Shown here: positions 13,721 to 61,050 of the stretch, in pieces
Position numbering within the stretch: position 1 is the first letter of the stretch
Layout: every line of letters begins with the position of its first letter
Origin: an uncultured Candidatus Saccharibacteria bacterium
Lineage (GTDB): Bacteria; Patescibacteriota; JAQUNI01
Length of the DNA stretch: 64,000 bases
Direction of reading: 5' to 3'
NCBI GenBank assembly: GCA_964555185.1
Contig: CAZKRD010000002.1
Location: 120,438 to 184,437 of the forward strand
The notes under the pieces: model-generated
What the model was told of the DNA's origin: nothing
What the model saw: the letters and a program-made list of their open reading frames with translations, nothing else
The model's database searches: none
Position numbers and translations under genes: made by a program

Positions 13721-13827
13721 ACTGGCTATTTAATGTCAAATTTCAAAATCCAAATGACCAAAATTTGGCATTTGACATTTAGATTTGATTTGACATTTAT
13801 CATTTGAAATTTGAAATTTATTAACGG

Positions 13828-14346
13828 TTAGCTTTCAAATTTCAACAAAACGTGTTTTTTGTATCCTTTAATCTTCTTATATCCTTTTAGACTTAGCAAT
13901 TCTCCTAGGAGCGCAATGCCGATAATTTTAGCACCAAGTCTTTTAATAATTTTGATTGTTGCCTTGAGAGTATTCCCGGTCGCGAGAACATCATCAACAA
14001 TCAAAACCCTCTCCTCTGGTTTAATCGTGTCTTGGTGCATTTCCAAAACATCTTTGGCGTATTCATAGCTGTATTGTTCGCGAAGACACTTAAAAGGCAG
14101 TTTTCCTTTTTTGCGGACAATCGAGATGCCGGTTTTGAGTTTGTAGGCCACACCAGAAGCAAGTAGGAATCCTCGCGCATCAATGCCAACCACTTTTTGA
14201 ATTTTGGAATACTGAAAAGGCCTGGCCAGAGCGTTGATTGTATAGTGATAAACTCGAGCGTCTTCTAAGAGTGGCGTAATGTCTTTGAAACTTATTCCTT
14301 TCTTGGGAAAATCAGGGATTACCCTGATATATTTTTCTAGATTCAT
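13828..14346 (-). CDS. apt: Adenine phosphoribosyltransferase
   Basis: IPDFPKKGISFKDITPLL. PRPP-binding loop VLIVDDVLATGNT. I moved the start to the internal Met (MNLEKYI...) that matches the canonical APT N-terminus. The track ORF begins 13 codons upstream. Confidence 0.75.
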   Translation of the reverse strand: MNLEKYIRVIPDFPKKGISFKDITPLLEDARVYHYTINALARPFQYSKIQKVVGIDARGFLLASGVAYKLKTGISIVRKKGKLPFKCLREQYSYEYAKDVLEMHQDTIKPEERVLIVDDVLATGNTLKATIKIIKRLGAKIIGIALLGELLSLKGYKKIKGYKKHVLLKFES

Positions 14347-14431
14347 AATCTGTAAATTAGAAATGACTAATGCCCAAAATCCCAATTGGTAATTTTAGAT
14401 TTAATGAGAAGTTTCGTTAAGATCCTATATT

Positions 14432-14857
14432 TTACCCTGTATCTCTAAAGACATCAAATTTTTTGTAGGCTCGAAAGATTAAGAAGTAGGAAAGGGTTTT
14501 AAGGTGGTTCCCGATATCATCAAGGATAAGATGAAGGGTTAGACCAGAAGATAATCCAATTAGGATAGGGTTCCATTCTTTGTAATAGGTCAGAAGCCAG
14601 AGCAGTAATAGTAGTTCATAAGAATGAAGAGGAACATATGCCTTGTGGTTTTTTCGGCGCATGTAATTTTCAGTCAAGAAAAAGTCTTTGAGATTGAAAT
14701 ATCTGTCAGGCCGTGAGATCAAGAAATCAAGGATGTGGTCAAGATCAATAAAGATGCCGGAAAGAATCACTGCTAAACTCGCTGCTGTTGATTTTAGGAA
14801 ATAGTAGATTACGAGAGCTAAGACTACTGAAGAAAGGATATGGGTTCTTGGCTTCAT
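14432..14857 (-). CDS. Membrane-bound metal-dependent hydrolase (DUF457/YdjM-like)
   Basis: 141 aa, 3-4 TM helices. IFIDLDHILD... motif. Confidence 0.45.
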   Translation of the reverse strand: MKPRTHILSSVVLALVIYYFLKSTAASLAVILSGIFIDLDHILDFLISRPDRYFNLKDFFLTENYMRRKNHKAYVPLHSYELLLLLWLLTYYKEWNPILIGLSSGLTLHLILDDIGNHLKTLSYFLIFRAYKKFDVFRDTG

Positions 14858-14866
14858 TATTTTGTT

Positions 14867-16342
14867 TTAGGTTTTTGTTTTTTTAAAGTCAATAAGATGG
14901 CCAATGACGGCTTTCGCTCCCCGGCCAAAGTATCTAAGATCGTCAAGATTACGGATTGAGATCACTTGGCGGAAGATAAATTCGGGATCAAAGGCTACCC
15001 TATAGGTTTTTTGGACTAATTCTTGCAGTTTTTCCTCTGAGATTGGACTTTTCATAATCGCTTCACGCATATCGTAGCGATTCCAGTCCAAGGTCTTAAG
15101 CCAGCCCCGCTCTTTGCATTCTGAAAAAAGCGGGGTGCCTGGATAAGGAATCACGATTGTTGCCTGCAGGGTTTTGGCATACCCTTTGCGTAAGAGGTAA
15201 CAGCCCAATTTCATAGTTGCGCGTGCGTCTTCCTCTTTTTCCCAAGAGTAACCGAACATAATGGTTAAGTGAGGAGAGAGTCCGGCTTTAGCCGCCCTTC
15301 GGCAAGACTTTATAATTTTCTCGACGGTCATATTTTTATTGATTCTATCTAAGGTTTTCTGGCTGGCCGATTCCAAACCAAAGAGCAGAAAACGGAAGCC
15401 CGCTTCTCTCATTAATTGATAGCCTTTGCTATCCACAGCGTCAAACCGTAGATTACAATCCAAGACCATTTTTTGATTGTAACCCTTTTTGATCATCCCT
15501 TGACAGAAGCTTTGAAGCCATTTTCCTGTTGGTAGAGTGCCGGAGTCTTCCATAATTTCTCGGACACCTAAATTAATTAATCTGCCCACTTCTTCTACGG
15601 CCAATTCCGGACTTCTTGTTCTGTGAGTCCCTGGTGGAAAAAGAATGTGATTCCAGGAACAGAAAGTACACTTGCCCCACCAGCAGTCGCGGCCGCTCAT
15701 CATATAAGTACCGGGCGTGCGTGAGAAATTGCCATTCTGATAAGCATAGAGTTGCCATTTGGTCAGTTCGCGGTCAATAAAAGGGAGAGAGTCAAGGTTG
15801 TGATTTAATTGAAAAGGGCCTGTGTTTTTAATCTTTCCGTTTTCGCGAAACCAAAAGCCAGGTTTAAGCTCCTTCCCTTTCGAAAGATGATTAGCAAGAT
15901 TTAAGAGCATAAAGTCATAGTCGCCGCCGGTTAGGATATAGTCAACAGAAGAGTTCTCCAAGGATTCTTTAGGTAAAGATGTAACATGGTCACCCATCAG
16001 GGTAATTTCCAATTTCCAATTTCCAATTTCCAAATTTTTCTTTTTCAATTCGTCAATTATTTTCCAGTGATGCTTTACGGTTGGAGTTTTGGTTTCAATC
16101 GCGACGAGATCGGGTTTTTCTTTCAATATCCTTTTTTTCCATTCAGGGTAACTTAATTTTTCCGCGATACCGTCATCCCAAAAAATACCATACCCTTCTT
16201 TTTTTAACAGAGTAGCGGCATAGGCCGGCACCATTGGATAGATATAGGTGCAGGAGGAAAAAGTCTGATATTGCCGGTTTTGGCCGATCATCGGCGTCCC
16301 TTGTATTTTCGGCAGGGGTGGATAAGATATCGCAATTTTCAT
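14867..16342 (-). CDS. Class B (cobalamin-binding) radical SAM enzyme with atypical Cys spacing
   Basis: 491 aa. B12-binding-like N-terminus. The cluster motif is SGRDCWWGKCTFCSW, a CX4CX2C rather than CX3CX2C. It contains an in-frame (AATTTCC)x4 heptanucleotide repeat. Confidence 0.65.
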   Translation of the reverse strand: MKIAISYPPLPKIQGTPMIGQNRQYQTFSSCTYIYPMVPAYAATLLKKEGYGIFWDDGIAEKLSYPEWKKRILKEKPDLVAIETKTPTVKHHWKIIDELKKKNLEIGNWKLEITLMGDHVTSLPKESLENSSVDYILTGGDYDFMLLNLANHLSKGKELKPGFWFRENGKIKNTGPFQLNHNLDSLPFIDRELTKWQLYAYQNGNFSRTPGTYMMSGRDCWWGKCTFCSWNHILFPPGTHRTRSPELAVEEVGRLINLGVREIMEDSGTLPTGKWLQSFCQGMIKKGYNQKMVLDCNLRFDAVDSKGYQLMREAGFRFLLFGLESASQKTLDRINKNMTVEKIIKSCRRAAKAGLSPHLTIMFGYSWEKEEDARATMKLGCYLLRKGYAKTLQATIVIPYPGTPLFSECKERGWLKTLDWNRYDMREAIMKSPISEEKLQELVQKTYRVAFDPEFIFRQVISIRNLDDLRYFGRGAKAVIGHLIDFKKTKT

Positions 16343-17334: not shown

Positions 17335-17458
17335 TTAGTTCAAAGTTTAAAGTTCAAAATTCAAAGTTTAGTTCAAAATTCAAAGTTTTTAGTTTCACAA
17401 CTTTAAACTTTTGACTGTAATTTTTAACTTTTCACTTTGTACTTTGAACTGTTGAATT

Positions 17459-21400: not shown

Positions 21401-21642
21401 TTTGTTTTTTATTTAATTACTTGGGGCCCCCGGAAAATTGAAAATTTTCTGGGGTAAAATTTGGGGCCTCCCAGCTCGAATCAAAGATTTGAGCTGGGGT
21501 ATATTTTTTAATATCAAAATATTCTCCTAAAAAGGAGCTTGTTCTTATCTTACCTTATTTTAGTATTTCAAAGGGCCAAGGTCAACCCTAGTTTGACTTT
21601 GTGGTTTTTTTTGATTAGAATAAGAGAAGAAAAGTAAAAAAT

Positions 21643-25367: not shown

Positions 25368-25412
25368 TTTAAATTGTTACAGCATTGACCGATCGGTCAG
25401 TTTTGTAACGTT

Positions 25413-27308: not shown

Positions 27309-27470
27309 TTTTTTAGGGATATAATTTTTAATTTCTAATTTTTAATTCTTAATCAATGTTTAATTTTTAATGATTTAATTTTTAAACAAGATAAGTTAGA
27401 AACAATAGAATGTTTAAAAATTAAAGCATTAAAAATTGATTAAAAACTAAAAATTAAGAATTAAAAATTG

Positions 27471-45001: not shown

Positions 45002-45123
45002 GGTTTGATTGTGATATTATTATTCTAGTCCAGATACAATGAGTTGGCAAGCTCAAAAATTTGGTTTATTTGGGTTTTTGAGGTAGAATTGTATAGAGTC
45101 AATTTTTTATTTTTTAATTTTTA

Positions 45124-46978: not shown

Positions 46979-47010
46979 AAGTTATGAATTATGAATCATG
47001 AATTTTGCAT

Positions 47011-48267: not shown

Positions 48268-48332
48268 TTTTGGTTTTGCTGAAAATAAAAATTAAATAAA
48301 AATTAAAAAATAAAAATTACGGATTGTAAAAA

Positions 48333-49061: not shown

Positions 49062-49070
49062 TGTTGGCGC

Positions 49071-49856
49071 TTACTTCGAGAACGGTATTTTTTTGTTTTG
49101 ATCTAAATTTAATTTGAAATTTTTTTCTAGGATTTTTCCTGCCCCCGGGTTTTTGCTTTCGGCAATGATTGAGGAAAGCAAATCAAACCGGTAAAGTCCG
49201 GGCTTGCCAAAGTCAATTGTCTCCTTGTTTTGTTTAGAAACCTTAGTGAGGTATTCAATTTGTTTTTGCTTGCTTTCTAATTTTTGAGCAAGCAAGACAA
49301 GCCTTTGGTTTGCGCTTGAATCTATGATTACGCCGAAGTGATGGAAAACATTCTGATTTTTTTTGATTTCCAGATCTCTCGGGACAAAGGCGTTTTTGAA
49401 GATTATTTTTTTTGTCTGAAAGCCGTATTCTAAATCCGCCAAAGTATTGTTGCTTACGGTCCGCAAGTTGGTTGTCTTGCAGACGGTTAAAATATGAGCA
49501 AGGGCATAAGCCGGAGAATAAACCTTTTCAATTTCATTTTCGGACAGAGCGATCTGGTGGTCAATAGCAAAGCAGTCTAAGATATCTTGATCGCGGAGCA
49601 AGGTTTTCCCGTGTTTCTCGGCATAAAAACTGATTGTATTCGGGAAGGCGGTCAGGATGTGCTTTGAAAGAGTAGAGAGTTTAACCGGCGACTGCTTGAT
49701 GAATTTTTTAAGATCGGTTGTGTTAACACAAAAAGGATGCAGGAAGAGCTTGCTTACAGTCTTCACTGCTCTTTCGGTTAGCTTTATTTTCTCAAAATTA
49801 GGCAGGGTTTTTTTTCTGTTTTCATTTAGCTTTTGGATAAGGTCTTCTTTGACCAT
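49071..49856 (-). CDS. Hypothetical protein inserted in the hydrogenase gene cluster
   Basis: 261 aa with no recognisable motifs. Confidence 0.3.
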   Translation of the reverse strand: MVKEDLIQKLNENRKKTLPNFEKIKLTERAVKTVSKLFLHPFCVNTTDLKKFIKQSPVKLSTLSKHILTAFPNTISFYAEKHGKTLLRDQDILDCFAIDHQIALSENEIEKVYSPAYALAHILTVCKTTNLRTVSNNTLADLEYGFQTKKIIFKNAFVPRDLEIKKNQNVFHHFGVIIDSSANQRLVLLAQKLESKQKQIEYLTKVSKQNKETIDFGKPGLYRFDLLSSIIAESKNPGAGKILEKNFKLNLDQNKKIPFSK

Positions 49857-50728
49857 AGTCTGTGTTGAAAAATGACAAGATAGACACCTAAAGAGAGAAG
49901 GATAATCCCCAAGATTTTTAAAGGTAGTATTGTCTGGTCGATAAAGACCAAAGAGAGCAGGGCGGTAAGCGGGGCGCCTAGTGATAGGATCGCGGTCGCG
50001 GTGAAGGCAGGAATGTATTTTAAGCCGTTATAAAACGTGATGACATAAGCAAACAGAATTATACTGCTGATCACAATCCAAATGTATTGCCCTAGAGAGT
50101 CACCTGGGATCATATTAGATAATCCTTGTTTTGCGATTAAGAAAATCAGGATGAAAATTGTGCCAAAAAACATTCTGCCCCAGGCCACGGTAAAAGCGGA
50201 AAGATTTTTCAAGAGCTTTTTAGAGAGCGCGATTTCAAAAGCCCACATCATTGTCGCGATTAAAATTAGAAAGTCTCCTCGGTTGAAGGCCTCTGGTCTG
50301 TATTGGAAATAACAGATACTGCCAGAGAGGATAACAAGCGCGGCAATCAGTTCGTATTTATTTATTTTTTTCTTTAGGAAAATCCAGGAGATCGGAATCA
50401 GCCAAACAAAGAGGGTTTTATGGAACAAGCTGGCTTGAGCCGCCGAGGTGATGGCCAAACCCTTAAAAAACAGCAAGAAAGGGATTGAGCCGCCGATCAG
50501 GCCAACCAGAATCAGTGTCAGCCAGTTTTTGTTTGTTAGGGATTTGAATTCTTTGAGACGGTAGATCAAAAGAATGGCGGTTGTTAGCAGGAGCGCGACA
50601 ATCAGGTTTTTAGCAAAGGTGAAGAAGTAAGGGTCAAGACCTTTTACTCCCCATTTGTTCAAGAAGATCGCAAAGCCGGAAATGACGGCGGCGGTTAAGA
50701 CTAATAGAATACCTTTGGTGGATTTCAT
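49826..50728 (-). CDS. EamA/DMT-family transporter
   Basis: 10 TM helices, two EamA-like halves, 300 aa. Confidence 0.65.
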   Translation of the reverse strand: MKSTKGILLVLTAAVISGFAIFLNKWGVKGLDPYFFTFAKNLIVALLLTTAILLIYRLKEFKSLTNKNWLTLILVGLIGGSIPFLLFFKGLAITSAAQASLFHKTLFVWLIPISWIFLKKKINKYELIAALVILSGSICYFQYRPEAFNRGDFLILIATMMWAFEIALSKKLLKNLSAFTVAWGRMFFGTIFILIFLIAKQGLSNMIPGDSLGQYIWIVISSIILFAYVITFYNGLKYIPAFTATAILSLGAPLTALLSLVFIDQTILPLKILGIILLSLGVYLVIFQHRLWSKKTLSKS

Positions 50729-50805
50729 AATTTTTTAATTTCAAATTTCAAAATCTAAATGTCAAATCAAACTCAAAGTTCAAAATCAAAAAGATTGCAA
50801 ATTTG

Positions 50806-51021
50806 TCATTTGGATTCGGCTTGGTATTTTAAGTGTTTTATTAACCGAAATATATTTCGAGCTTGTTTAGTGGATAGTTTGCCAATAATTAGACTGTTTT
50901 GCTTCAAGATCCAATCTCCTTTTTTAACTGAAACCAAAGAAGAATCAAGGGTGTCTCCTTGTTCTGATTTTGCTTGATTTCCTTTTATTTGAGTTATTTT
51001 TTGAGGTAAAGCAAAACACAT
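50806..51021 (-). CDS. Small hypothetical protein
   Basis: 71 aa, Lys-rich. It abuts the repeat copy C. Could be spurious. Confidence 0.2.
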   Translation of the reverse strand: MCFALPQKITQIKGNQAKSEQGDTLDSSLVSVKKGDWILKQNSLIIGKLSTKQARNIFRLIKHLKYQAESK

Positions 51022-51023
51022 GT

Positions 51024-51230
51024 TAGTTAATTTTCAATTTTCAAGTACCAATGTACTAATCAATTTTCAATTTTCAAGTACCAATTTTCAATCAATTTTC
51101 AATAACCAATAACTAAATGTTCAAACTGTTTGAAAATTAAATCTATTTGAACCTTCGTCCCGAGCTCAGGTCGAGGGAAATTATGATTTGATTGAACATT
51201 GGTCCTTGTAAATTGGTAATTCAAACAATA
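51024..51230. repeat. MITE-like AT-rich intergenic repeat, copy C, carrying a nested GC-rich hairpin insertion
   Basis: It shares ~125 bp with copy B. The element is interrupted at 51152..51180 by CGTCCCGAGCTCAGGTCGAGGGAAATTA and resumes with GATTTGATTGAA.... Confidence 0.7.
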
Positions 51231-51242
51231 TTTTCAACCTTG

Positions 51243-52052
51243 TCAGATGACATCAGGGATATTTTTAATTTTTTCCCAAGCAAACACCGGTCCGTCTTGG
51301 CATACATATTTTCCATTGACCAGGACGCAGTGCTGACAGACGCCAATCCCGCAGTGGATCCGGCGCTCCAAGGACAGATAGATGTTTTTGTCTTTGAATT
51401 TTAATTTTTTTAACCTCTCCAAAACAAATTTATACATAACAGGCGGGCCAACCACGAAAGCAAGGGCTTGTTTTAGAGTTTTATGTTTATCGAATAAAGT
51501 GGTGATTACGCCTACATTGCCGCGCCAACGGGGCTGGCACTGGTCCAAGGTGACTCGGACATCAATTTTGTTTTTGCGCCAGGCCGGAAACTCTTTTTCA
51601 AAGATACGATATTCCTCGCATCGGGTTCCATAAAAAAGTTGTACTTGCCGGTAAGCCCGCCTTTTGCTGATGATGCTTTTTATTACTGAACGGAGAGGAG
51701 CAAGACCAATGCCGCCAGCCACAATCAGGAGATTCTTTTGAGAGATTTTTTCCAAAGGAAAACCATGGCCATAGGGTCCGCGGGCGCCGATTAGATCTCC
51801 TTTTTTTAATTTGAAAAGCGAATCAGTTAAAACCCCTTTCTCTTGGACCGTGATTTGGAATTGTTTGGAATCGTATTGGCTGGAACAAAAAGCAAAGGGA
51901 GCTTCTCCCACTCCAGGCAAAGAGATTTCTGAAAACTGGCCTGCTGTAAAATGGATTTTTTTCTCTGGTTTGATTGTGAAGACTTTTACATTAGGAGCGT
52001 CGCAATAGACGTTTAATATTTTTGCTTTTTGCGGGATGAGGTCGTTTTTCAT
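51243..52052 (-). CDS. Sulfhydrogenase gamma-like subunit (FAD/NAD(P)-binding oxidoreductase with a 2Fe-2S site)
   Basis: Ferredoxin-reductase-type fold. C-terminal CGIGVCQHCV cluster. Confidence 0.75.
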   Translation of the reverse strand: MKNDLIPQKAKILNVYCDAPNVKVFTIKPEKKIHFTAGQFSEISLPGVGEAPFAFCSSQYDSKQFQITVQEKGVLTDSLFKLKKGDLIGARGPYGHGFPLEKISQKNLLIVAGGIGLAPLRSVIKSIISKRRAYRQVQLFYGTRCEEYRIFEKEFPAWRKNKIDVRVTLDQCQPRWRGNVGVITTLFDKHKTLKQALAFVVGPPVMYKFVLERLKKLKFKDKNIYLSLERRIHCGIGVCQHCVLVNGKYVCQDGPVFAWEKIKNIPDVI

Positions 52053-53005
52053 TTCGAGAATTTTTTTATTTTTTCTAGGTTTTTTTGGATATTAATCCCG
52101 ACCGGACAAACCTCGTTGCATCTTCCGCATTGGACGCAGCCAACAAATCCATATTCTTCGGGCATCCGGACAAACTTGTGGTCGTACCAATTGTAGATCC
52201 TTTCTTCAATATTCTTTAAGAATTTGTGCCCGCCCGCAACCTCGGAAAATTCTGAATAAAAGCAGTTTCCCCATTCGCGTTTAACTTTTCCTTCAGTGTC
52301 TGTTTTCAAATCGTAGCAATAACAGGTAGGACAGACCATGGTGCACTTGCCGCAGGCAAGGCATCTTTTGGCTAAATCTTTCCAAATCTTGGCGCCGCGC
52401 GACTTTTTCATTTTTTCTTTGATCTCAAGCCAATAAGCAGAATCTCCGCGGTTTAAGCGAAGCGGGCCTTGATATTCAATATGCTGATAGTCTTCTTGCT
52501 TAAAGTTTTCTAAGATTCTTTGGCCGTCCTCCGAGCCGGTGAATAAGCGATAGGTATTGTCTTGATTTCGATCAATATAAATATCAAATTTTAAATGCCG
52601 TAGGATTTTTTCCTCAAAGTTTTTGTAAGAGAGATTTTGATCAGGGATCGGTGACTTGCCGATAATAATTGTGTTACGTAAACTAGCTTGGAAATAAGGG
52701 TCGCGAGCAAAGATGATCGCGTATTGGGTTAGAGCTTCTAGATCAAACAAAGGAATGCCAAAGATTACCCTTTTTTTTATTGGCGGTTTTTGGGATTCAA
52801 ATTTTTTATTTTGGTATTGGTACAAGACTCTAGAGGGCGGCAAAAATAATTTCCGCAAAGGATAAAAAGATTTTTCGTCTTCTTCAATCTGATCTCCCGA
52901 ATTAATTTTCACAAAATCAACCAGTTCGCCCATTCTTTTGCGCGCCCAAACCTCAAAGCGCAGACAAAGCCAGTCAATAAGATTGTGATAAATAACAGAG
53001 TCCAT
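52049..53005 (-). CDS. Sulfhydrogenase beta-like subunit (4Fe-4S ferredoxin domains)
   Basis: CLACGKCTMVCPTC and CVQCGRCNEVCP motifs. It overlaps the gamma subunit gene by 4 nt. Confidence 0.7.
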   Translation of the reverse strand: MDSVIYHNLIDWLCLRFEVWARKRMGELVDFVKINSGDQIEEDEKSFYPLRKLFLPPSRVLYQYQNKKFESQKPPIKKRVIFGIPLFDLEALTQYAIIFARDPYFQASLRNTIIIGKSPIPDQNLSYKNFEEKILRHLKFDIYIDRNQDNTYRLFTGSEDGQRILENFKQEDYQHIEYQGPLRLNRGDSAYWLEIKEKMKKSRGAKIWKDLAKRCLACGKCTMVCPTCYCYDLKTDTEGKVKREWGNCFYSEFSEVAGGHKFLKNIEERIYNWYDHKFVRMPEEYGFVGCVQCGRCNEVCPVGINIQKNLEKIKKFSK

Positions 53006-53152
53006 GGGGAAATTGTTCTAATTATTTTAATTATTCTAATTGACCTAAACAAACCCCAATGACCAAATCCTAATGACCTAAATGTTTGAATGGTTTTTTA
53101 AAGATTGGGATTTCTGACATTGTTTAGAATCATTAGAACAATTAGAATAATT

Positions 53153-54064
53153 CTATTTCTCTTTTGCCAAATAGTTAAAAGCCGAGATTGCCGCTTTTGC
53201 TCCCTCGCCGGCCGCGATCACGATCTGCTCATAAGCGACATCTGTAATGTCGCCGCAGGCAAAAATTCCTTCTGTACTCGTGCAGCAGAATTTGTCTATT
53301 TTTATTTTGTTATCTTGATCTAATTGAACCAGATTTTTAACAATTTGCGAGTTTGGAATGCTGCCAATTTCAACAAAGACCCCTTCCAATTTTATTTTTT
53401 TCGCTTTTCCGGTCTTGTTATCTTTTATTTTCATCCCCGCTACTAAACTTTGACCAAAGATTTCAGTGATTTGAGTCTGGGTTAAAATCTCAATTTTTGC
53501 TAAAGATTTAACTCGCTCAAGCAGTAGAGGGTCGCCTTTACAGATTGGGCCGGCTTCAATGAGATAAATTTTATTTGCGACCTTGTCCATTTGAATCGCG
53601 GTTTCCAGGCCGGAGTTTCCACTTCCTACCACGGCAACAGTTTTTCCAGCAAATAGGGGTCCATCACAGGTAGCGCAGTAAGTAACGCCTTTGTTTTTGA
53701 ATTTTGACTCTCCTGGCACAGAGAGTCTCCGTGGCTTTTTGCCCATTGCCAGGATGATTGTACTTCCTTTAAAGGTTCCCTTTTCAGTCTTCACCTGAAA
53801 ATCTGAAGGTTCAGCTTTTGTTATTTTGGTCGCCTGATCTTTTTTGATCTCTACGGCGAACTTTTCCAGATGTTTGGTGAGTTTTTGAGCCAGTCCGACT
53901 CCGGTTTCAGAACTAAGCGCGGGGTAATTTTCGACTTCCCATGTCTCCAAAACTTGTCCTCCAAGATTAGGGCTTAGGAGCAGGATTTTTAGTTTTTTGC
54001 GGGCCGCATAGATGCCTGCCGTGATTCCGGCCGGCCCCCCGCCAATAATGATTGTGTCGTACAT
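53153..54064 (-). CDS. trxB: Thioredoxin-disulfide reductase
   Basis: IIGGGPAG, redox-active CATCDG, GSGNSG NADPH site, 303 aa. Confidence 0.8.
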   Translation of the reverse strand: MYDTIIIGGGPAGITAGIYAARKKLKILLLSPNLGGQVLETWEVENYPALSSETGVGLAQKLTKHLEKFAVEIKKDQATKITKAEPSDFQVKTEKGTFKGSTIILAMGKKPRRLSVPGESKFKNKGVTYCATCDGPLFAGKTVAVVGSGNSGLETAIQMDKVANKIYLIEAGPICKGDPLLLERVKSLAKIEILTQTQITEIFGQSLVAGMKIKDNKTGKAKKIKLEGVFVEIGSIPNSQIVKNLVQLDQDNKIKIDKFCCTSTEGIFACGDITDVAYEQIVIAAGEGAKAAISAFNYLAKEK

Positions 54065-54157
54065 AACTTTAATGCAAAAATCAAAATGTAATTCAGAATG
54101 TAAAAATAATTTTGCATTTTACATTTTCATTTTGACCTTTGCATTTTGATTTTTGCA

Positions 54158-54985
54158 TTATTTCTGGCATTTTGAACAAAAGTGGGCTGATCTATTATTG
54201 ATTTTGATCCGTTTAATCGTTGTTTTGCATTTTTTACAAGGGTCTCCTGTCCGGTGATAGACCCTAAGGTGCAGTTGGTGCTTTCCCTTCTTGCCATAAG
54301 CTTCGCGGTACCACTGATCAGAAGTGCCGTGGTGCTTGATCGCCTCGCGCAATACTTTTTTGATTGCTCGATAGAGACTTTGTAATTTTGCAGGCGGGAT
54401 TTTACCAGTCGGGGTTTCGGGATGGATCTTGGCCAGAAACAGCGCTTCGTCAGAATAGATATTGCCGATCCCGCTTATTTTAGCTTGATCAAGAAGCAGG
54501 GTTTTGATTTTTGCGGTTTTCCCTTTGAGGATTTCTTTGAATTTTTGAAAGGTGAATTTAGGCTCCAGAGGATCAGGCCCTAGTTTTTGAATCTTGCCGA
54601 AATCTTTTTCTAACTCCTTTTTAGGGAGAAGCCAGATTTGGCCGAATTTGCGCAGATCATTAAAACGTAGTTCGCAAAGTTTCCCTAAAGAGAACTTAGC
54701 ATGATTATATTTATCCGGCAGATCAGAGGGCTTTCGGATAAAGAGCTGACCGGTCAGCCGTAAATGAATGGCGAGGATTAGTCCGCCTGATAATTCCAAG
54801 AGGATAATTTTTCCCTTTCTTCTAACCTTAATGATTTTTTGATTCTGAATTGTTTGTTGAAATTTTTTCAAGCTATGCCCGACCAGCATTTTGGGCGTGT
54901 CTGAAGAAAAGGCGGTAATCGTTTTGCCGCGGATCCCTCTTTGGAGTTGTCTTACGATGGTTTCGACTTCAGGGAGTTCAGGCAT
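54158..54985 (-). CDS. mutM: Formamidopyrimidine-DNA glycosylase
   Basis: MPELPEVE N-terminus (catalytic Pro2) and C-terminal zinc finger CKKCKTTIKRI...SAHFCSKCQ. I moved the start to this Met. The track ORF is 25 codons longer. Confidence 0.75.
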   Translation of the reverse strand: MPELPEVETIVRQLQRGIRGKTITAFSSDTPKMLVGHSLKKFQQTIQNQKIIKVRRKGKIILLELSGGLILAIHLRLTGQLFIRKPSDLPDKYNHAKFSLGKLCELRFNDLRKFGQIWLLPKKELEKDFGKIQKLGPDPLEPKFTFQKFKEILKGKTAKIKTLLLDQAKISGIGNIYSDEALFLAKIHPETPTGKIPPAKLQSLYRAIKKVLREAIKHHGTSDQWYREAYGKKGKHQLHLRVYHRTGDPCKKCKTTIKRIKINNRSAHFCSKCQK

Positions 54986-55039
54986 AATATCAGTTAAAAG
55001 TGCAAAGTGAAAAGTTACAGCGCGAGCTGTCATTGCTTC

Positions 55040-55095
55040 GTCGCCTCTCGCTCGTTTCACTCGCTTGAGACTCCTCGCAATGACAAATTGAAATT
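55040..55095. repeat. Short inverted-repeat element GTCATTGCTTCG...TCACTCGCT...CGCAATGAC, copy 2
   Basis: The terminal inverted repeats GTCATTGC/GCAATGAC and the internal motifs are shared with 38338..38374. It lies ~55 bp upstream of the fpg start. Confidence 0.5.
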
Positions 55096-55151
55096 TGTCA
55101 CCTTGAACTTTGCCTGCCTGCCGAAGCCTTGGCGTAGGCAGGAATTTTGAA

Positions 55152-56606
55152 CTAATTTTGCCCGATCATTACCGCGATCGGCTGGAGGCGGGCGATTTTT
55201 TTAGTGATTTTACGTTCGACCAGAGCATCAATCACCAGCTCAATATCTTTATAGGCCATCGGCGCTTCGTCCAAGACCTCAAGGACAGATCTAAAGTTGG
55301 TTAAGATATTACCCAGTTTTTTTTCAAACTCTTGGGGCTTGACTTCTCTTTTTGCCTGTGTGCGGGAGAGCCTTCTTCCCGCGCCGTGATTGACAGAATA
55401 GAAAGTCTCTTGAGCATTTTCGCCGGCAACCAGGATGTAAGAAGGGGTGGCCATTGAACCAGGGACAAGCGCGGGGTGGCCGGTTTCTTGATAGATTTTT
55501 GGATTTTGAGGGTGATTTGCCGGCAGAGCCCTAGTTGCTCCTTTGCGGTGGATTAAATACTCTCTGCCCGAAGAGTCTTTTTCAAATTTGGCAATGTTAT
55601 GAGCAACATCGTAGAGCAGTTCCATACCTAAAGCTTCAGGGTCTTTACCGAACATTTCGGCAAAGGCATCTCTGACATCGTGCATAATTAAGTGGCGGTT
55701 ACAGAAAGCATAATTAACCGCTGCTGCCATTGCTTTGAAATAGTTTTGACCCGCTTCGGATCGAATCGGTACGGCAGCTAAGCCCTTGGTCGGGATATAG
55801 AGACCTTGTTTTTGAGCTTCTTCAAACAACGTCTGCATATAATCATGGCCGATTTGATGACCAAAGCCGCGGGAACCACAGTGAATCATTACGCAAATAT
55901 TGTTTTGGGAAAGACCAAAGGTTGAAGCCGCTTTTTCATTATATATTTTTTCGATTACTTGAATATCAATGAAATGATTGCCGCCGCCTAAAGTACTTAA
56001 TTGATTTTCACCTCGCCTTTGCGCCCGGTCAGAAACAGCGCCTAAATCCGCGCCTGCCATGATTCCCCTCTCCTCACAATGTTCAATATCAGAAGGTTGA
56101 CCATAGCCTTTTTGGACCAAAAGAGGTACACCTTTTTTTACAACATCAGCTAAGCTAATGTCTCGTAGTTTGCCCCTTACCCCAGATTTACCTGTGCCCA
56201 GAGGGATCCGTTTTTCAATCTTACGCATTAGCTTTCTTAATTTCGGCTTGTCTATTTTTTTATTCTTTCCTTGGAATTTTGAAAGCGGGATCCCTGTTTT
56301 GACAAGTCTCACCCCGCAATTAATATCATAACCAACCGCGCCTGCTGAAATTAATCCTTTTTCAGGATCCATTGCCATCACCCCGCCAATCGGCAAGCCA
56401 AAACCAACGTGGATATCAGGGAGGCCGATTACGGGCTCAATTACGCCCTGAAGAGAAGCGGCAGCGGCCAGTTGATCTAAAGACTCGTCTTCCTCCAGCT
56501 CCTCTTTTAGTTCGTTATTTAAATATAAAACCGCGTCAACCAGCATTTGGCCGTGTTTTTTAATCCGGAAGCGATTTTTGCCGTCAGGCAAAAGATTGTA
56601 TCGCAT
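55152..56606 (-). CDS. rtcB: RNA-splicing ligase RtcB
   Basis: ...GYDINCGVR..., NHAGAGR-like (VNHGAGRR), HNIA. I set the start at MRYNLLPDG, two nt after the ferredoxin stop. Confidence 0.85.
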   Translation of the reverse strand: MRYNLLPDGKNRFRIKKHGQMLVDAVLYLNNELKEELEEDESLDQLAAAASLQGVIEPVIGLPDIHVGFGLPIGGVMAMDPEKGLISAGAVGYDINCGVRLVKTGIPLSKFQGKNKKIDKPKLRKLMRKIEKRIPLGTGKSGVRGKLRDISLADVVKKGVPLLVQKGYGQPSDIEHCEERGIMAGADLGAVSDRAQRRGENQLSTLGGGNHFIDIQVIEKIYNEKAASTFGLSQNNICVMIHCGSRGFGHQIGHDYMQTLFEEAQKQGLYIPTKGLAAVPIRSEAGQNYFKAMAAAVNYAFCNRHLIMHDVRDAFAEMFGKDPEALGMELLYDVAHNIAKFEKDSSGREYLIHRKGATRALPANHPQNPKIYQETGHPALVPGSMATPSYILVAGENAQETFYSVNHGAGRRLSRTQAKREVKPQEFEKKLGNILTNFRSVLEVLDEAPMAYKDIELVIDALVERKITKKIARLQPIAVMIGQN

Positions 56607-56608
56607 AT

Positions 56609-56797
56609 TTACTTTTTGATTTTGATTGCTTCTACCGGGCAGGCTTGGGCCGCGTCCTGGACATCGCACCCTTCTGCTCCTTCTGGCTTTAACACCTTTG
56701 CTTTGTAGGTATCCTGGTTTAGTTTAAAAACTTGAGGGCACATTGTCTCGCAAGTATTACAGCCAATACATTTTTCTTGATCAATGGTTATTTTCAC
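56609..56797 (-). CDS. Small 4Fe-4S ferredoxin
   Basis: CIGCNTCETMCP ... CP. 62 aa. Confidence 0.65.
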   Translation of the reverse strand: MKITIDQEKCIGCNTCETMCPQVFKLNQDTYKAKVLKPEGAEGCDVQDAAQACPVEAIKIKK

Positions 56798-56873
56798 ATT
56801 TTTATTTTATAAATCAAACAATAGCAAAAAACTTTTTCGAAATTTAAAACTCGAAGTTTTTTAAATTTAAGAA

Positions 56874-57029
56874 TTATTTACAGCAACAGGTTGTTTTGTA
56901 GCAGTCACACTTTGGCGGACAGGTACAGTTTTCGACAGTTTCTCCGCAATCGCAGGGACACATCTGGGAGCTTTTTTTATTCTTTTTTTTATCCGAAAGA
57001 GACTTGGGGTTGCAGATTCTGCAGGACAT
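56874..57029 (-). CDS. Cysteine-rich small protein (metallothionein-like)
   Basis: MSCRICNPK...CPCDCGETVENCTCPPKCDCYKTTCCCK has about 13 Cys in 51 aa. The longer track ORF begins in an (AATTTCC)n intergenic repeat. Confidence 0.35.
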   Translation of the reverse strand: MSCRICNPKSLSDKKKNKKSSQMCPCDCGETVENCTCPPKCDCYKTTCCCK

Positions 57030-57145
57030 AGTAGCATTTTTTAATTTCCAATTTCCAATTCTCAATTTCCAATGAATTTTTAATGTTTAAATTTTCAATA
57101 ACAATAAAATGTTTAAAAATTCATTCATTAAAAATTGAATCAAAA

Positions 57146-57391
57146 TTAAGAATTAAGAATTAATTTATCGATTTTCTCCCGATCAAATCCTAAAATAACT
57201 TCTTCTTTCTTGCCTTTTTCAATAAGGGTTACGGGTACGCCCATTTGGCCTGATTTCTGGATCATTTCTTCTGCCGCCTTCTGATCTGCGGCAATATTAA
57301 TCTCTTGAAATTCGATTTTATTTTGCTTCAAGTACTCTTTTAACAGAACGCAGTGGGGACAGACAGGCGTGGAGTAAATTTTAATTGTCAT
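57146..57391 (-). CDS. Glutaredoxin/NrdH-like redoxin
   Basis: CPHC active site in a thioredoxin fold. 81 aa. Confidence 0.7.
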   Translation of the reverse strand: MTIKIYSTPVCPHCVLLKEYLKQNKIEFQEINIAADQKAAEEMIQKSGQMGVPVTLIEKGKKEEVILGFDREKIDKLILNS

Positions 57392-57601
57392 ATCGTTCTT
57401 GGTTTTCTAGTTTAACCAATATTATTATAGCATATTAATTATAATTGTAAATAAAAATAAGAGATGGCATATGCTCGTTTATTTATCCTTAGCGAGGAGT
57501 ATAAAGCGTTTACATATGCCATCTCTGGAGACTACGAGAGCGATCTTGACGATCTCGGATTTAGTCTCTGTTAGTCAAGGATTGTATAGGATTTTCGATT
57601 A

Positions 57602-58687
57602 TTAAAACAATTCTCGCGCTAAATCCCAGTAAGCATCATTCCCCTCTTCTTTTTGCCAAGACCACCATTCTACGCCCCAGAGATAAACTTCGGTAAAACC
57701 GCATTGCTTGCTGTAATCTATAATTTCCTGAAATTTTTCCGGGGTCATTGTTTTGGCGATGATTTCGGGGGCTAAGGTTTTAATATCTCCGTGGACCCAG
57801 GGTTCAGCCTGTTGTTCTGAAACAATCACGGGTTTATTGCCGAAAAGAAGGCGCATCAAAGCAACCTTGCGCTGATAAAAAATCGCCGGGATGCGATATT
57901 TCATATAGCCCAAAACCCGGTTATAGACATATTTATATAAAGAAGTGCCAAGGATATCAGCGCGGCGGAATTCGCCGACCCACAAAGAAAGCTCGCCTGA
58001 TGAAGTGAGCATAATCGGTCGGTTATCTAAGGCCCGTACTAATTCGATTTCTGAATCAAAAAATTCCTTGTCTAATTTTGGACAGTTGCCAAAAGAGTGG
58101 AAAAAGAAAGGTTCATTCTCTACTTGCCAGATTTTAATTCCTTCTTTATCTCTATATCGTTCAACAGTTTTTTGAATGATTTCTAAAAGTTCAGTTTGCC
58201 TTTTTTCTTCTTCCAGATTTTTTGCCCATTCTGGGATATGGCATTCGGGCCAGCGCGGCAGTTTTTGGCCCAGAGCCAGAATGATTTCCGCGTTCGCTTT
58301 CTCTGCTTCTTCAATCTGCCAGTCCAATTCAGAAAAATCATAGTTATCTTTTTCTGTCTCGATTAAATCCCAGTAAGCAACTAATCTAAGTTTTTTTACT
58401 TTAAGATCGTGGAGGATCTCCCGGAAGACTTGTTGGGGATCCTGATCATAACCGCGCACGCTTTTAGTAGAAAAAGTAACACCGTACTCAACCTGTTCTG
58501 TTTGTTTTGGAATCCCAATTACAAAATAACCAAAACCCAGAGCCAAGAAACTGAATATTGTTGAGAGAGTTATTATTAAGCAAATTTTTAGGTAACCAAA
58601 AAACAGAATTTTGCATTTTGAATTTTCATTTTGATTTTCCCTCGACCTGAGGCTCAGGACTCGAAGGTTGATTTTTGATTTTTGCAT
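57602..58687 (-). CDS. Membrane-anchored glycoside hydrolase, clan GH-A ((beta/alpha)8)
   Basis: The catalytic acid/base motif WQVENEP. One N-terminal TM helix. The first ~25 codons are encoded by a GC-hairpin repeat and CAAAATG words. The start overlaps the EamA stop (TAATG). Confidence 0.5.
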   Translation of the reverse strand: MQKSKINLRVLSLRSRENQNENSKCKILFFGYLKICLIITLSTIFSFLALGFGYFVIGIPKQTEQVEYGVTFSTKSVRGYDQDPQQVFREILHDLKVKKLRLVAYWDLIETEKDNYDFSELDWQIEEAEKANAEIILALGQKLPRWPECHIPEWAKNLEEEKRQTELLEIIQKTVERYRDKEGIKIWQVENEPFFFHSFGNCPKLDKEFFDSEIELVRALDNRPIMLTSSGELSLWVGEFRRADILGTSLYKYVYNRVLGYMKYRIPAIFYQRKVALMRLLFGNKPVIVSEQQAEPWVHGDIKTLAPEIIAKTMTPEKFQEIIDYSKQCGFTEVYLWGVEWWSWQKEEGNDAYWDLARELF

Positions 58688-59580
58688 TATTTGAAGGCCA
58701 GAATCGCTAATCCCAAAGTAATCAGAACCACGGCAATTACTTTTTGCGCGCGGTGGGTTTTAAATTCCTCGGCAAATAATTTAGGCAGTTTTCTTGCTAA
58801 GATTAGAGCAATCAGGATCAAAAAGACGTATTGAATTCCTTGAAGGGCGTTGACGATGGTTACTGATGACGAGAAAATCGCGTAATTCAACATTATAAAA
58901 GAAAGGGCAGCGACTGCGCGTACGCCCAAGTAGCCCACTCCTACTTTCAAGCCCACTTTTTTTGGCGCTTCTTTGATTTGTTTGCGAAAGTGAGGCAAAG
59001 CAAAAATAGCAAGGGCGGCAATAATACTGCCGATCCTGGTCCAGATAAAGCCAGCCCAAAAAGTTCCATTAGTATAGACAAATTTTGTCAAAACAAAAGA
59101 GGCGGCAAAAAAGAAAGCGGCTAAAATGCCCCAGAAGATTCCTTTGCCCGAGAAGATATTATGGCGCCGCCGCTCGGAAGTAATCAAGATGCCGCCTAAG
59201 ATTAATAGGTAAAAAGCAATAAATTGGTTGCCGCTTAACTTTTCTCCCAAAAAAGAATAACTTAAAACAAAAGTAAAGATTGGGATCATTGTGCCGACAA
59301 GCGGGATAACTCGGGAAGTAGGATTTTTTTCAATCGCAAGGTAAAAGAAGACCAAAGCAATCGTAAACAGAATCCCTGCTAAAAGAGCGGTGATAATTGT
59401 TTTGATTTGGGGAGTGGCGGTTGCCAGTGGAATCAGCAAGAGAACAAAAATACTCAAGATTCCATTGTAGAAAGCATAGACCACTGGCGCTTTTACCTCG
59501 CGGGACAAAATATATTTGTCCGCGATAAAAACTAAAGCGGCAAGCAGGTGGGCACAGATGATAAAGAAAAGCCAAGACAT
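58687..59580 (-). CDS. EamA/DMT-family transporter
   Basis: 10 TM helices, 297 aa. Confidence 0.6.
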   Translation of the reverse strand: MSWLFFIICAHLLAALVFIADKYILSREVKAPVVYAFYNGILSIFVLLLIPLATATPQIKTIITALLAGILFTIALVFFYLAIEKNPTSRVIPLVGTMIPIFTFVLSYSFLGEKLSGNQFIAFYLLILGGILITSERRRHNIFSGKGIFWGILAAFFFAASFVLTKFVYTNGTFWAGFIWTRIGSIIAALAIFALPHFRKQIKEAPKKVGLKVGVGYLGVRAVAALSFIMLNYAIFSSSVTIVNALQGIQYVFLILIALILARKLPKLFAEEFKTHRAQKVIAVVLITLGLAILAFK

Positions 59581-59673
59581 GAATTTAAATCAAAAGTCAA
59601 AATGCAAAAATCAAAATGAAAATGTAAAATGTAAAATTTCCTGACGTAAATTATTATTTGGAATTTGTAATTT

Positions 59674-60900
59674 TTATTCGGAATTTATTTGGAATTTGTA
59701 ATTTGTAATTTGGAATTTTTCAATAATCTCCTTATATCTATAAGCCGATTCTCTGGGGGTTCTTTTTTGGGTTTTGTAGTCAATATCCACAAGTCCAAAG
59801 CGCGGAGCAAAGCCGTATGCCCATTCAAAGTTATCGAGTAGTGACCAATGGAAATAACCGTGAACTGGAACATTTTGAGCAAGAGCGCGGCTGATCGCCT
59901 CAATATGTTGTGTTATAAATCGGGGCCGCAGACTATCTTGTTTATCCGCTATTCCATTTTCCGTGATATAGATCGGCAGATTGTATTTTTTTAATTTGAG
60001 GAGAGTTTGATATAGACCTTCCGGATAAATTTCCCAGCCAAGATCAGAAACATTTTGACTTTCGTTCTCGGTTTGATAAAAGGGGCGGTGGAGTGTTGTC
60101 CGGATAAAATCGCGATAGTAATAATTTACTCCCAGGAAGTCGTGATAACCTTTAGTTTTTTTGTAAAACAGATGATTCCAGAATTTGTCAGCCAAGCGGC
60201 AGGCAATTTTATCGAAAAAAGATTTGGCCGGTTCAAAGTAAATAAAGTTTTTAGCAATGCCGACTTGAGCTTCAGGCAGGAGGGCGTGGATTTTGAGGTA
60301 AGCTTTTTTGTGGGATTTGACTAGATTTTTCAATGCCCTTTTAAATTTATGGAAGCTTTTTTCTCCTGGCGGCCATTTCCCCTGCAGATAACCAAATCCA
60401 GCATAGACATTAGGTTCATTAATCGTAATCCAGAGATCAACATAGTCAGAGAATCTTTTGACTGCGGTTTCAACAAAGCGCGTGAAGTAATATCTGCTTT
60501 TGCGGTTTAAAAATCCTCCTTTTTGAGAGAACCAGAGAGGCAGAGTAAAGTGATGCAGAGTAAGCATAACCCTCAAGTCCCGTTCCCGCAGGGCCTTTAA
60601 AACAGCAATGTAGTGATTTATTTCTTTTTCAGAAAATTTTCCTTCTTCTGGTTCAATCCTGCTCCATTCTAAAGACAGCCGATGCGTGTTGTGGCCTAGA
60701 CTTTTTGCCAAATCAAAATCCTCTCGGAATAAATTATAATGGTTGCAGGCTTCCCCTGAAGATTCTAGATTTTTGTGAGTCTGTTCCCATTCCCACCAGT
60801 CATTGTTGCGGTTATTCCCTTCAACTTGATGAGCGGAAGTCGCCGCGCCCCAGAGGAAATTTGAAGGAAAGTTTTTTAATTTTTCTAACATATTGTTCAA
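59674..60900 (-). CDS. Glycoside hydrolase family 1 beta-glucosidase
   Basis: FLWGAATSAHQVEG, TINEP (acid/base), ITENG (nucleophile). 408 aa. Confidence 0.85.
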   Translation of the reverse strand: MNNMLEKLKNFPSNFLWGAATSAHQVEGNNRNNDWWEWEQTHKNLESSGEACNHYNLFREDFDLAKSLGHNTHRLSLEWSRIEPEEGKFSEKEINHYIAVLKALRERDLRVMLTLHHFTLPLWFSQKGGFLNRKSRYYFTRFVETAVKRFSDYVDLWITINEPNVYAGFGYLQGKWPPGEKSFHKFKRALKNLVKSHKKAYLKIHALLPEAQVGIAKNFIYFEPAKSFFDKIACRLADKFWNHLFYKKTKGYHDFLGVNYYYRDFIRTTLHRPFYQTENESQNVSDLGWEIYPEGLYQTLLKLKKYNLPIYITENGIADKQDSLRPRFITQHIEAISRALAQNVPVHGYFHWSLLDNFEWAYGFAPRFGLVDIDYKTQKRTPRESAYRYKEIIEKFQITNYKFQINSE

Positions 60901-61050
60901 AATCTTTAATTTTTAATTTGTAATTTTTATTTAATTTCCCTCGACCTAAGGACTTCGGCTGAGCTCAGTCGAACGCCCTCGGGACGAAGGTTTATTTTTT
61001 ATTGTTTAGAAATTAAGAATTGCAAATTCAACAAAAATTAAAAATTACCC

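Follow-up and report, generated by a model that had tools for sequence, protein, structure and literature searches.

A 64,000-nt stretch of DNA from an uncultured Candidatus Saccharibacteria bacterium (contig CAZKRD010000002.1; this whole stretch is hereafter called the window) contains intergenic spacers made of reiterated AT-rich words that are followed by their own reverse complements and fold into long hairpins. We consider it likely that these word hairpins are copies of dispersed selfish elements that resemble the intervening sequences (IVSs) of rRNA genes and colonize gene junctions, and that at least the family built from AATTTTC and TTGAAAA words (family 1) comes from a cassette encoding a four-helix-bundle protein. 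The closest named homologues of the proteins encoded in the window belong to bins of Patescibacteria or the candidate phyla radiation (CPR), and its gene content is ordinary, with dTDP-rhamnose and glycosyltransferase genes, TrxB, Fpg, RtcB, and a NiFe-hydrogenase cluster. The DNA is contained in a 355-kb metagenome scaffold, ENA ERZ23486238 scaffold_19. The minus strand carries nearly all of the genes, so that each spacer leads from the 3′ end of one gene to the 5′ end of the next. Neither a transposase nor RNase III nor a four-helix-bundle protein is among the window gene products, the window contains no rRNA, and scanning it with Rfam (gathering thresholds) and for tRNAs gave no matches. 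Metagenome and plasmid loci fetched as relatives are designated by L-numbers (L002, L004, and so on); a search of genome contigs with TrxB returned only an unrelated archaeon.

From position 13721 onward, the window contains 28 spacers of at least 60 nt. A preliminary description of this DNA held that most of the longer spacers are word-built and can fold; we found words in 13 of the 28, about half, and hairpins in 10-11 of these 13. The words are tandem heptamers, with period 7 reported by Tandem Repeats Finder (TRF) in 12 spacers and a period of 9 in one. Autocorrelation of the pooled spacers gave z scores of 9.9, 5.7, and 2.5 at lags of 7, 14, and 21, respectively; coding sequence had 3-periodicity only. 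In agreement with the description of the arrays as inverted and non-random, the spacers at 13721-13827, 17335-17458, 27309-27470, 29805-29996, 31547-31784, 53006-53152, and 54065-54157 folded far better than their dinucleotide shuffles (z −3.5 to −10.8), and long stems were also found at 51022-51242, 57036-57165, and 60901-61050. Across the window hairpins, arm length ranges from 20 to 68 nt and arm complementarity from 74 to 95%. Nine of the twelve intervals originally listed as hairpins stand; the other three (50729-50805, 58591-58686, and 59581-59739) are word arrays only. As a control, 5′ and 3′ halves were exchanged among spacers: native halves yielded −25.4 kcal per 100 nt, compared with −16.1 for halves combined with those of other spacers, and the exceptions were spacers that share one word family. 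Arm complementarity is thus specific within a family. The GC content of word spacers is 13-27%, and copies of family 1 average −24 kcal per 100 nt. Two intrinsic classes could be distinguished, each of which reads alike on both strands: a T-first class (5′-AATTTTC...loop...GAAAATT-3′; hairpins beginning at 27309, 29837, 31604, 51022, 53006, 57036, and 60901) and an A-first class with the A-rich arm on the 5′ side and the T-rich arm on the 3′ side (13721, 17335, and 54065).

The evidence for dispersal is clearest for family 1. Its copies have inverted termini, TAATTTTC...GAAAATTA, and an exact 24-mer, AATTTTCAATTTTCAAGTACCAAT, with the non-repetitive word AAGTACC in it, was recovered from 113 metagenome stretches of many environments, with 97 distinct flanking contexts among them. 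A 3′ arm is recognisable in 81 of the 97, giving elements of 68 to 272 nt. In the window, an nhmmer profile of the family matches 31611-31775, 51028-51224, and 57042-57157 at E values of 1e-13 to 1e-19, and 29837-29996 is an inverted copy of the element seen at 31607-31726 and 51024-51143. The latter two segments are 98% identical over 120 nt, which substantiates the earlier remark that words recur between spacers. The other window families have relatives at 3-44 unrelated loci each, in loci that had been fetched for a different reason. The architecture is thus not specific to the lineage, contrary to what had been supposed. All inspected copies, from the window and from metagenomes, are located between or within protein-coding genes. 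Among the 81 full copies, outward-facing gene starts lay within 15 nt of the right end in 15 of 37 cases and within 11 nt of the left end in 15 of 26, and stop codons were equally tight in 20 of 31 and 27 of 38 cases, respectively. Start codons were 0-15 nt away from element ends, and a 2-nt overlap with the element, namely with its terminal AA, is common among stop codons. Since the elements abut both start and stop codons, they fill spacers that would otherwise be minimal.

In L098, a half element is all that lies between rpsC and rplP. In the topA genes of L075, L078, and L084, the family-1 5′ arm (the 24-mer plus TTTCAAACAAAAG) stands in frame directly after the AHEAIRPT motif and adds LNFQFSSTNFQTK; the insert is identical in the three contigs despite synonymous-site differences in the flanks. 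In L090 and at ~540-600 of L143, which are unrelated contigs, a different palindromic insert, of ~60 nt (CACCCTGTTAAATA...TATTTAACAGGGTA), interrupts the 5′ arm of family-1 elements.

The link to a protein came from ~10 metagenome contexts with a gene between the two arms. In such a cassette, the 5′ arm, AATTTTCAATTTTCAAGTACCAATTTTCAATGAAATTCCA|ATG, runs into an open reading frame (ORF) of ~120 aa whose start codon is located in the inner 5′ arm; the 3′ arm, TGAAAATTAAATTATTGAAAATTCATTGAAAATTGAAAATTGGGATTTGAAAATTA, opens with the stop codon of this ORF, TGA. Genes enclosed in this manner were found in L030, L045, L020/L121, L095/L042, and L082. Their product is the TIGR02436 'four helix bundle protein' (71-77 bits, with a cut-off of 24; PF05635, 23S_rRNA_IVP). 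Other four-helix-bundle genes have other arm words, including AAATCCT/AGGATTT (second copy in L030), AATTTTG/CAAAATT (L115), and AATTAAG/CTTAATT (L011). When genes were picked by protein similarity alone, three of four had clear arms and one had a partial arm. The search yielded more than 6000 PF05635 homologues; identity ranges from 68 to 99% among the best 120 listed, whose source names, where given, are all those of CPR lineages (Azambacteria, Parcubacteria, Paceibacterota, and WWE3). Many of the homologue-bearing contigs are only 0.5-2.5 kb long, which fits a repeat at which assemblies break.

One window copy preserves traces of this gene. Alignment of the element at 29837-29996 with the L030 cassette extends over 130 of 163 nt and shows a deletion of ~335 nt; the element retains ATGAATAAATTTTCAAACAAAA, whose translation, MNKFSNK, is that of the N-terminus of the L020/L121 protein, and also the stop-codon region GGTTTGAAAATTAAAT. 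An intermediate state is seen in L023, where a 242-nt deletion has left only the last 40 codons between the arms. The alignments thus form a deletion series that leads from L030 through L023 to the window copy.

Comparison with syntenic relatives revealed how rapidly the word spacers are replaced. L004, whose TrxB is 91% identical, is syntenic with 43-64 kb of the window, as is L005 (63%). At orthologous spacers, architecture is kept and sequence is not: the hairpin of the Fpg-TrxB spacer is built from CAAAATG words in the window, from AGTTCAA words in L004, and from TAATCAG words in L005, and the counterpart of 60901-61050 in L004 is a hairpin of CCAATAA words. Between the window and L004, entire spacers have been replaced, gained, or lost. 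The NiFe-HypA spacer is 32 nt in one and 132 nt in the other, and the GH1-EamA spacer, which is 159 nt in the window (59581-59739), is 47 nt with a GC hairpin in L004. A single arm has been swapped at 10913-11080 of L004, where the left arm of 53006-53152 is conserved and the right arm has changed to family-1 words. Such chimeric arm pairs, which are also found in L062, and the replacement of spacers between genomes with 91% identical TrxB show that the arrays act as recombination substrates, as had been suggested. In L008 and L009 (TrxB 62%), TrxB abuts or overlaps the next gene (Fer4_22) with no spacer at all, and in L010 (65%) only an extra gene of 127 aa, with spacers of 9-11 nt, lies between TrxB and the next gene; these three genomes and the more distant L011 have heptamer hairpins of their own elsewhere. 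The hairpins are thus insertions into junctions that need no spacer rather than conserved regulatory sites. L002 offered no strain-level variation in repeat number for comparison, its sequence being identical to that of the window.

The same architecture is found outside the CPR. A tblastn search of 72,556 plasmids with the CPR protein matched 18 records, of which 16 are cyanobacterial (nearly all filamentous) and two are from Bacteroidota. Inverted heptamer arrays flank the four-helix-bundle gene in eight of ten inspected plasmid cases and direct arrays in the other two. The arm words include (AATTCGT)4/(ACGAATT)3 in Nostoc flagelliforme, CGTAAAT/ATTTACG in Planktothrix, and TAACTGA-type words in Chondrinema, and Anabaena plasmids likewise pair heptamer arrays with four-helix-bundle genes. 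Within a 50-kb stretch of a Nostoc plasmid, each of the two four-helix-bundle genes has such arrays exactly on either side, and inverted pairs of the same words without a gene lie close by. These plasmid arrays are the short tandemly repeated repetitive (STRR) heptamers known in the literature from filamentous cyanobacteria. STRR sequences have been described as intergenic, hairpin-capable tandem units of 7 bp, one example being those that separate hupS from hupL, and what they do was left open (PMC2670836); related heptamer arrays are treated in PMC4679880 and bioRxiv 10.1101/2022.06.06.494920. A search of the available literature found no published link between STRR sequences and four-helix-bundle genes, which is not proof that there is none. 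Some cyanobacterial-plasmid cassettes lie in or beside defence operons: those of L125, L126 (between cas2 and cas1), and L131 (adjoining cas1), and that of L127, which is located between the DISARM gene drmD and an MmeI-type enzyme. The cassettes of L125 and L126 are on the strand opposite to the cas genes.

At the level of sequence, the elements are shown to be dispersed, bounded by inverted repeats, fast in turnover, prone to arm recombination, and inserted at gene junctions, and the AATTTTC family is shown to derive from, or to have arms in common with, a PF05635 cassette. We propose that the word hairpins are copies of elements with two arms, each a tandem array of 7-nt units. In the full-length form of at least family 1, the arms carry the TIGR02436/PF05635 gene between them; most copies are gene-less. 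Internal deletion of the gene leaves a solo hairpin, as the alignments indicate for 29837-29996 and as membership of the sequence family suggests for 31604-31784, 51022-51242, and 57036-57165. Such elements have colonized gene junctions in many Patescibacteria, including junctions within operons; they turn over fast, exchange arms by recombination, and acquire small GC-rich hairpin inserts. Their heptamer arrays may lengthen and shorten through replication slippage. By analogy with rRNA IVSs, which RNase III excises without re-ligation, the AU-rich stem of 40-70 bp formed in the transcript may be cut by RNase III, which would make insertion between cistrons tolerable. The remaining word families of the window (13721, 17335, 27309, 53006, 54065, and 60901) may be of the same nature.

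A number of observations weigh against this interpretation. Only the AATTTTC family, which accounts for 4 of the 10-11 window hairpins, is linked by sequence to the cassette, and six other window hairpins gave no significant match to the family-1 profile (E 0.13-0.95). All window copies are gene-less, the full cassette is absent from the window, and tblastn detected no four-helix-bundle gene in the window, L004, or L005. Insertion of the gene into a pre-existing hairpin, instead of its deletion, retains some plausibility as the shared N-terminal codons are word-like; the L023 intermediate argues for deletion. No target-site duplication was evident, the longest direct repeat across the flanks averaging 1.53 nt versus 1.90 ± 0.14 nt in shuffled pairings (n = 78), in a test that is weak owing to imprecisely defined 3′ ends. 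A transposase is likewise absent from the window. The arms also showed no copy-specific compensation, complementarity being 11.1 with a copy's own partner and 11.6 with the partners of other copies, and sense and antisense stability did not differ (26 versus 24 copies, p = 0.31, among 51 family-1 copies; 12 of 19 in the window set). Without compensation or strand asymmetry, nothing indicates selection on an RNA stem.

Four other explanations were weighed. The preliminary description put forward bidirectional terminators, and the hairpins might indeed be selected terminators or insulators between co-directional genes, with the A-first class acting in both directions: they sit between genes, often spanning the distance from stop to start codon, the 3′ arms at 13721, 17335, and 54065 are U-rich and would form a weak RNA:DNA hybrid, and the Fpg-TrxB junction keeps some word-set hairpin in three genomes. 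We nevertheless regard this as improbable. The stems are nearly devoid of G+C and mostly lack a T-tract, the T-first class ends in an A-rich 3′ arm, and a consensus scan of 45000-64000 called no terminator inside the word hairpins. Canonical terminators are used in other spacers of the window (33412-33550, 36970-37093, 40373-40501, and 57392-57601), each with a GC stem and T-tract followed by a TTGACA-17-TATAAT promoter. The same genes abut in relatives, as the spacer-free TrxB/Fer4_22 junction of L008 and L009 and the minimal spacers around the extra small gene of L010 illustrate; half elements and in-frame copies inside coding sequences exist; and neither arm compensation nor sense/antisense asymmetry was detected. 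We give still less credence to the idea that the hairpins, having neither mobility nor a parent, were made in place by replication slippage and intrastrand template switching (quasipalindrome correction). Variable heptamer copy number and the different words at orthologous sites would fit such an origin, and a passage in PMC4679880 cites heptamers as the commonest long simple repeats in many bacteria and ascribes them to polymerase slippage. It does not account for a 24-mer with a non-repetitive AAGTACC in 97 contexts, for distant loci that are 98% identical over 120 nt, or for remnants of the four-helix-bundle gene inside hairpins, and it predicts the opposite of what was found for complementarity, which was no higher with a copy's own partner than with those of others. 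For family 1, an in-place origin is largely refuted.

It is similarly doubtful that the arms serve the adjacent genes as outward-facing promoters or AU-rich translation leaders. Shine-Dalgarno sequences are nearly absent from the window genes and canonical promoters lie 9-35 nt from the ATG, a combination that suggests leaderless mRNAs or mRNAs with very short leaders. In such a genome, the frequent outward gene starts near element ends, with arms often ending 1-8 nt from an ATG, could have a regulatory meaning; ATTGAAA arrays automatically yield TTGnAA-17 nt-GAAAAT, with weak matches in the 51022 and 57036 arms, and heptamer repeats at start codons have been discussed as regulators in Beggiatoaceae and Nostoc (PMC4679880; bioRxiv 10.1101/2022.06.06.494920). 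Yet stop codons are abutted as tightly as start codons, the promoter matches reach only 9 of 12 positions and barely exceed those of shuffles (56 versus 38.8 ± 6.5), and neither the A-first class nor the enclosed gene would be explained. Outward promoter or leader activity is possible as a side effect of the elements. Least probable of all, in our judgement, and by a wide measure, is that the arrays bind a nucleoid-associated or other DNA-binding protein, or that they modulate supercoiling through cruciform extrusion. The arrays are AT-rich and periodic, and the cholera toxin promoter has TTTTGAT heptads to which transcriptional regulators are recruited (bioRxiv 10.1101/2021.05.14.444153), but the words change completely from spacer to spacer and from one orthologous site to another, their period of 7 does not match the helical repeat, and arms of 74-81% complementarity with loops of 14-90 nt are poor cruciform formers.

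The preliminary description knew of no described equivalent; two are available. The IVS is regarded as selfish and as horizontally spread, with no known mechanism; its termini are inverted repeats, it carries an S23p ORF that is prone to decay, and RNase III excises it from the transcript (PMC4990558). ORFs of the 23S_rRNA_IVP type are present in rRNA insertions of CPR bacteria (PMC11270868). Like the 23S rRNA IVSs with such an ORF (Leptospira, Coxiella, Brucella, Xanthomonas-type protein), the elements described here have complementary termini that form a long stem, with a four-helix-bundle gene of ~120 aa in the loop, oriented with the host transcript. The S23p/PF05635/TIGR02436 ORF in the loop, which only a subset of IVSs possess, is present in full-length relatives, and one window copy keeps its first 7 codons and the stop-codon region. 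They differ in lying between, or occasionally in frame inside, protein-coding genes rather than in a helix of 23S or 16S rRNA, in having arms of variable-length tandem heptamer arrays, and in that gene-less copies outnumber full ones. With STRR sequences they share hairpin-forming tandem 7-nt units in non-coding DNA and the pairing of arrays around four-helix-bundle genes; they differ in their Patescibacteria host and very AT-rich words, the described units, such as CCCCAGT, being those of (heterocystous) cyanobacteria.

Other repeat systems resemble the elements less closely. REP/REPIN-RAYT systems, built on repetitive extragenic palindromes (REPs), are also many-copy intergenic hairpin repeats with a gene between inverted copies, and their gene-less copies are viewed as non-autonomous (PMC3116915). 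Here, however, the enclosed protein is a small helical bundle found in multiple copies, without the HUH/Y1 nuclease motif, and the units are not GC-rich palindromes of 20-40 nt; no Y1_Tnp (RAYT) gene was found in the window or the annotated loci, where the flanked gene is that of the four-helix bundle. Miniature inverted-repeat transposable elements (MITEs) such as Correia, RUP, and BOX are likewise short and non-coding, with inverted ends and internal-deletion derivatives, lie at gene junctions, and affect transcripts. Unlike MITEs, the elements have no target-site duplication, the parent encodes only the four-helix-bundle protein and no transposase, and the arms are internally repetitive and variable in length. 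Two further candidates were discarded: DNA curvature through phased A-tracts, as the period is 7 and not about 10.5, and integron attC sites, as the enclosed gene has an arm on either side instead of one site behind it and there is no integrase.

Beyond the window, it is conceivable, though this is clearly the more speculative part of our proposal, that four-helix-bundle (S23p/Avd-like, PF05635) proteins are trans-acting partners of heptamer hairpins, and that cassettes and solo hairpins together form one unrecognised class of mobile or self-maintaining element across Patescibacteria, filamentous cyanobacteria, and Bacteroidota. The samples behind this association are small, comprising 10 plasmid genes, ~14 CPR genes, and one control region of 50 kb. 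If true, it would explain the 35-year-old STRR repeats as well as the role of rRNA intervening-sequence proteins. The ingredients, namely IVS cassettes, STRR heptamers, and MITE- or REPIN-like decay, are already known; what is new, to our knowledge, is their mutual identity, their abundance between the protein genes of a CPR genome, and the association of heptamer hairpins with four-helix bundles across phyla. Three separate topics are thereby connected, namely STRR-type repeats, four-helix-bundle intervening-sequence proteins, and the fragmented, repeat-rich spacers of CPR genomes. Should the link hold genome-wide, it would provide a testable model of a parent cassette with solo hairpins, for which Nostoc or Anabaena would be a tractable system. 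In practical terms, the elements break short-read assemblies of CPR genomes and can be mistaken for terminators or regulatory RNAs.

Contig ends illustrate the effect on assemblies. Short-read contigs often end in word hairpins, and 13 of 118 matches to the 24-mer are within 150 nt of a locus end. L002 ends at the hairpin 27309-27470, 66 nt before the UDP-glucose dehydrogenase gene. Contigs with close homologues of TrxB or of the four-helix-bundle protein are mostly 0.5-3 kb long.

Among the individual elements of family 1, the copy at 29837-29996 (minus strand), the internally deleted cassette, matched the profile at E 2.4e-17, and the fold of 29805-29996 had a z score of −5.6. The copy at 31604-31784 (plus strand), between the NUDIX and RmlC genes, contains an internal 33-nt duplication and has arms of 68 nt that are 78% complementary (nhmmer E 2.7e-19; z −6.3 for the fold of 31547-31784). 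That at 51022-51242 (plus strand) lies between an NAD-binding gene and hypC, folds into a long stem, carries a 26-nt GC-rich mini-hairpin insert at 51152-51177, and ends 6 nt upstream of the hypC ATG. A relative of the family at 57036-57165, with AATTTCC/GGAAATT words and 49-nt arms of 76% complementarity (E 1.7e-13), is situated between the glutaredoxin and ferredoxin genes; its arms extend into the ends of both, and its core, AATGAATGAATTTTTAAAC, is common with family 1. The AATTTCC word was also confirmed inside a coding sequence, as earlier noticed: a perfect heptamer array of 4.3 units, detected by TRF at 16004-16033 within a radical-SAM gene (minus strand), encodes LEIGNWKLEI and leaves the ORF intact. 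It corresponds to an 8-aa insertion relative to the paralogue at 3470-4903 and matches the profile of the family-1 3′ arm at E 7.7e-6.

The remaining T-first hairpins include the longest one, at 27309-27470, which is built from TAATTTT/TTAAAAA words at 13% GC and has 59-nt arms of 81% complementarity (minimum free energy (MFE) −44.2, z −10.8). Relatives of it occur in 44 loci, and 27401-27464 is 88% identical to 57100-57163; its match to the family-1 profile is not significant (E 0.2). The hairpin at 53006-53152 is the one with 9-mer words, AATTATTCT/TTAGAATAA (33-nt arms, 82% complementary; z −3.6). At 60901-61050, TAATTTT words form 24-nt arms that are 88% complementary (MFE −37.9, z −3.7), with nested GC-rich mini-hairpin inserts at ~60925-60985. 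In the A-first class, the hairpin at 13721-13827 occupies its entire spacer, with an A-rich arm of CAAATTT/CAAATGA that is 5′ on both strands (MFE −24.1, z −3.5; period-7 z 6.8; 20-nt arms, 90% complementary), and has relatives at 14 other loci. The hairpin at 17335-17458, of AGTTCAA/AACTTTG words, has 42-nt arms that are 74% complementary (MFE −31.0, z −4.3; period-7 z 8.4); its word family has relatives in 12 loci and recurs at the non-orthologous sites 5340-5427 of L008 and 9909-10000 of L004 and in L094 and L035. The hairpin at 54065-54157 consists of CAAAATG/CATTTTG words in 22-nt arms of 95% complementarity (z −5.3). As for the arrays that do not fold, 50729-50805 is a half element (period-7 z 4.8; MFE z −0.9) whose L004 orthologue is identical at 72 of 77 positions; 58591-58686 has heptamer arrays in direct orientation that flank a GC-rich mini-hairpin, with no word hairpin; and 59581-59739 has two non-complementary arrays, AAAATGT and ATTTGTA/ATTTGGA (period-7 z 7.2; MFE z +1.5 to +2.1).

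GC-rich mini-hairpins of ~20-30 nt, such as CCTTCGTCCCGAGCTCAGGTCGAGGG and pairs of the form CCGCC-N3-GGCGG, stand within AT-rich arms or at hairpin apices. Besides 51152-51177, ~58642-58670, and 60925-60985 in the window, they were seen at 8975-9005, 10955-10990, and 17055-17076 of L004, at 14970-15000 of L011, and in L020, L022, L029, L038, L052, L068, L091, and L099. The insert at 51152-51177 is missing from the near-identical copies at 31604, in L085, and in the L004 orthologue, so that filled and empty sites can be compared, and at 60925-60985 one GC-rich insert is nested within another. The small dispersed repeats (SDRs) of cyanobacteria are tiny, palindromic, nested, and inserted in repeats. 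The ~26-nt GC-rich inserts in AT-rich arms (51152-51177, 60925-60985, L020, L022, L029, L038, L052, L091, and L099) behave alike; they differ in that their sequences are unrelated, and one comparison of a filled with an empty site bears on their mobility.

Two small genes next to the elements are readily overlooked. One is hypC (50806-51021, minus strand; 71 aa, MCFALP...). The other encodes a 4Fe-4S ferredoxin of ~62 aa (56874 to ~57035, minus strand); its longest ORF begins within a hairpin arm, and the true start is probably the ATG at ~57035.

Some long spacers (204-439 nt) contain no word arrays, Rfam matches, or clear ORFs: 46282-46720, 56670-56873, 38312-38590, and 21401-21642. The last of these lies between divergent genes; GGCCCC...GGGGGCCCC is among its several GC-rich stems. 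The region at 1-13700 of the window has a G+C content of 32-36%, compared with about 40% elsewhere, and short spacers without word hairpins. Its genes are of the radical-SAM/B12, glycosyltransferase, and methyltransferase types, and it may be a separate glycan-modification island. Finally, a 48-nt palindrome with a T-tract (TTGTTACAG.ATTG..CGATCG..CAG.TTTGTAACGTTT) occurs at 25374-25421 and 42973-43020 with 83% identity. One of the two is intergenic (z −4.0 for the hairpin), and the other is antisense within the 3′ part of a class I aminoacyl-tRNA synthetase gene (42668-45001), for which Pfam suggests LeuRS.

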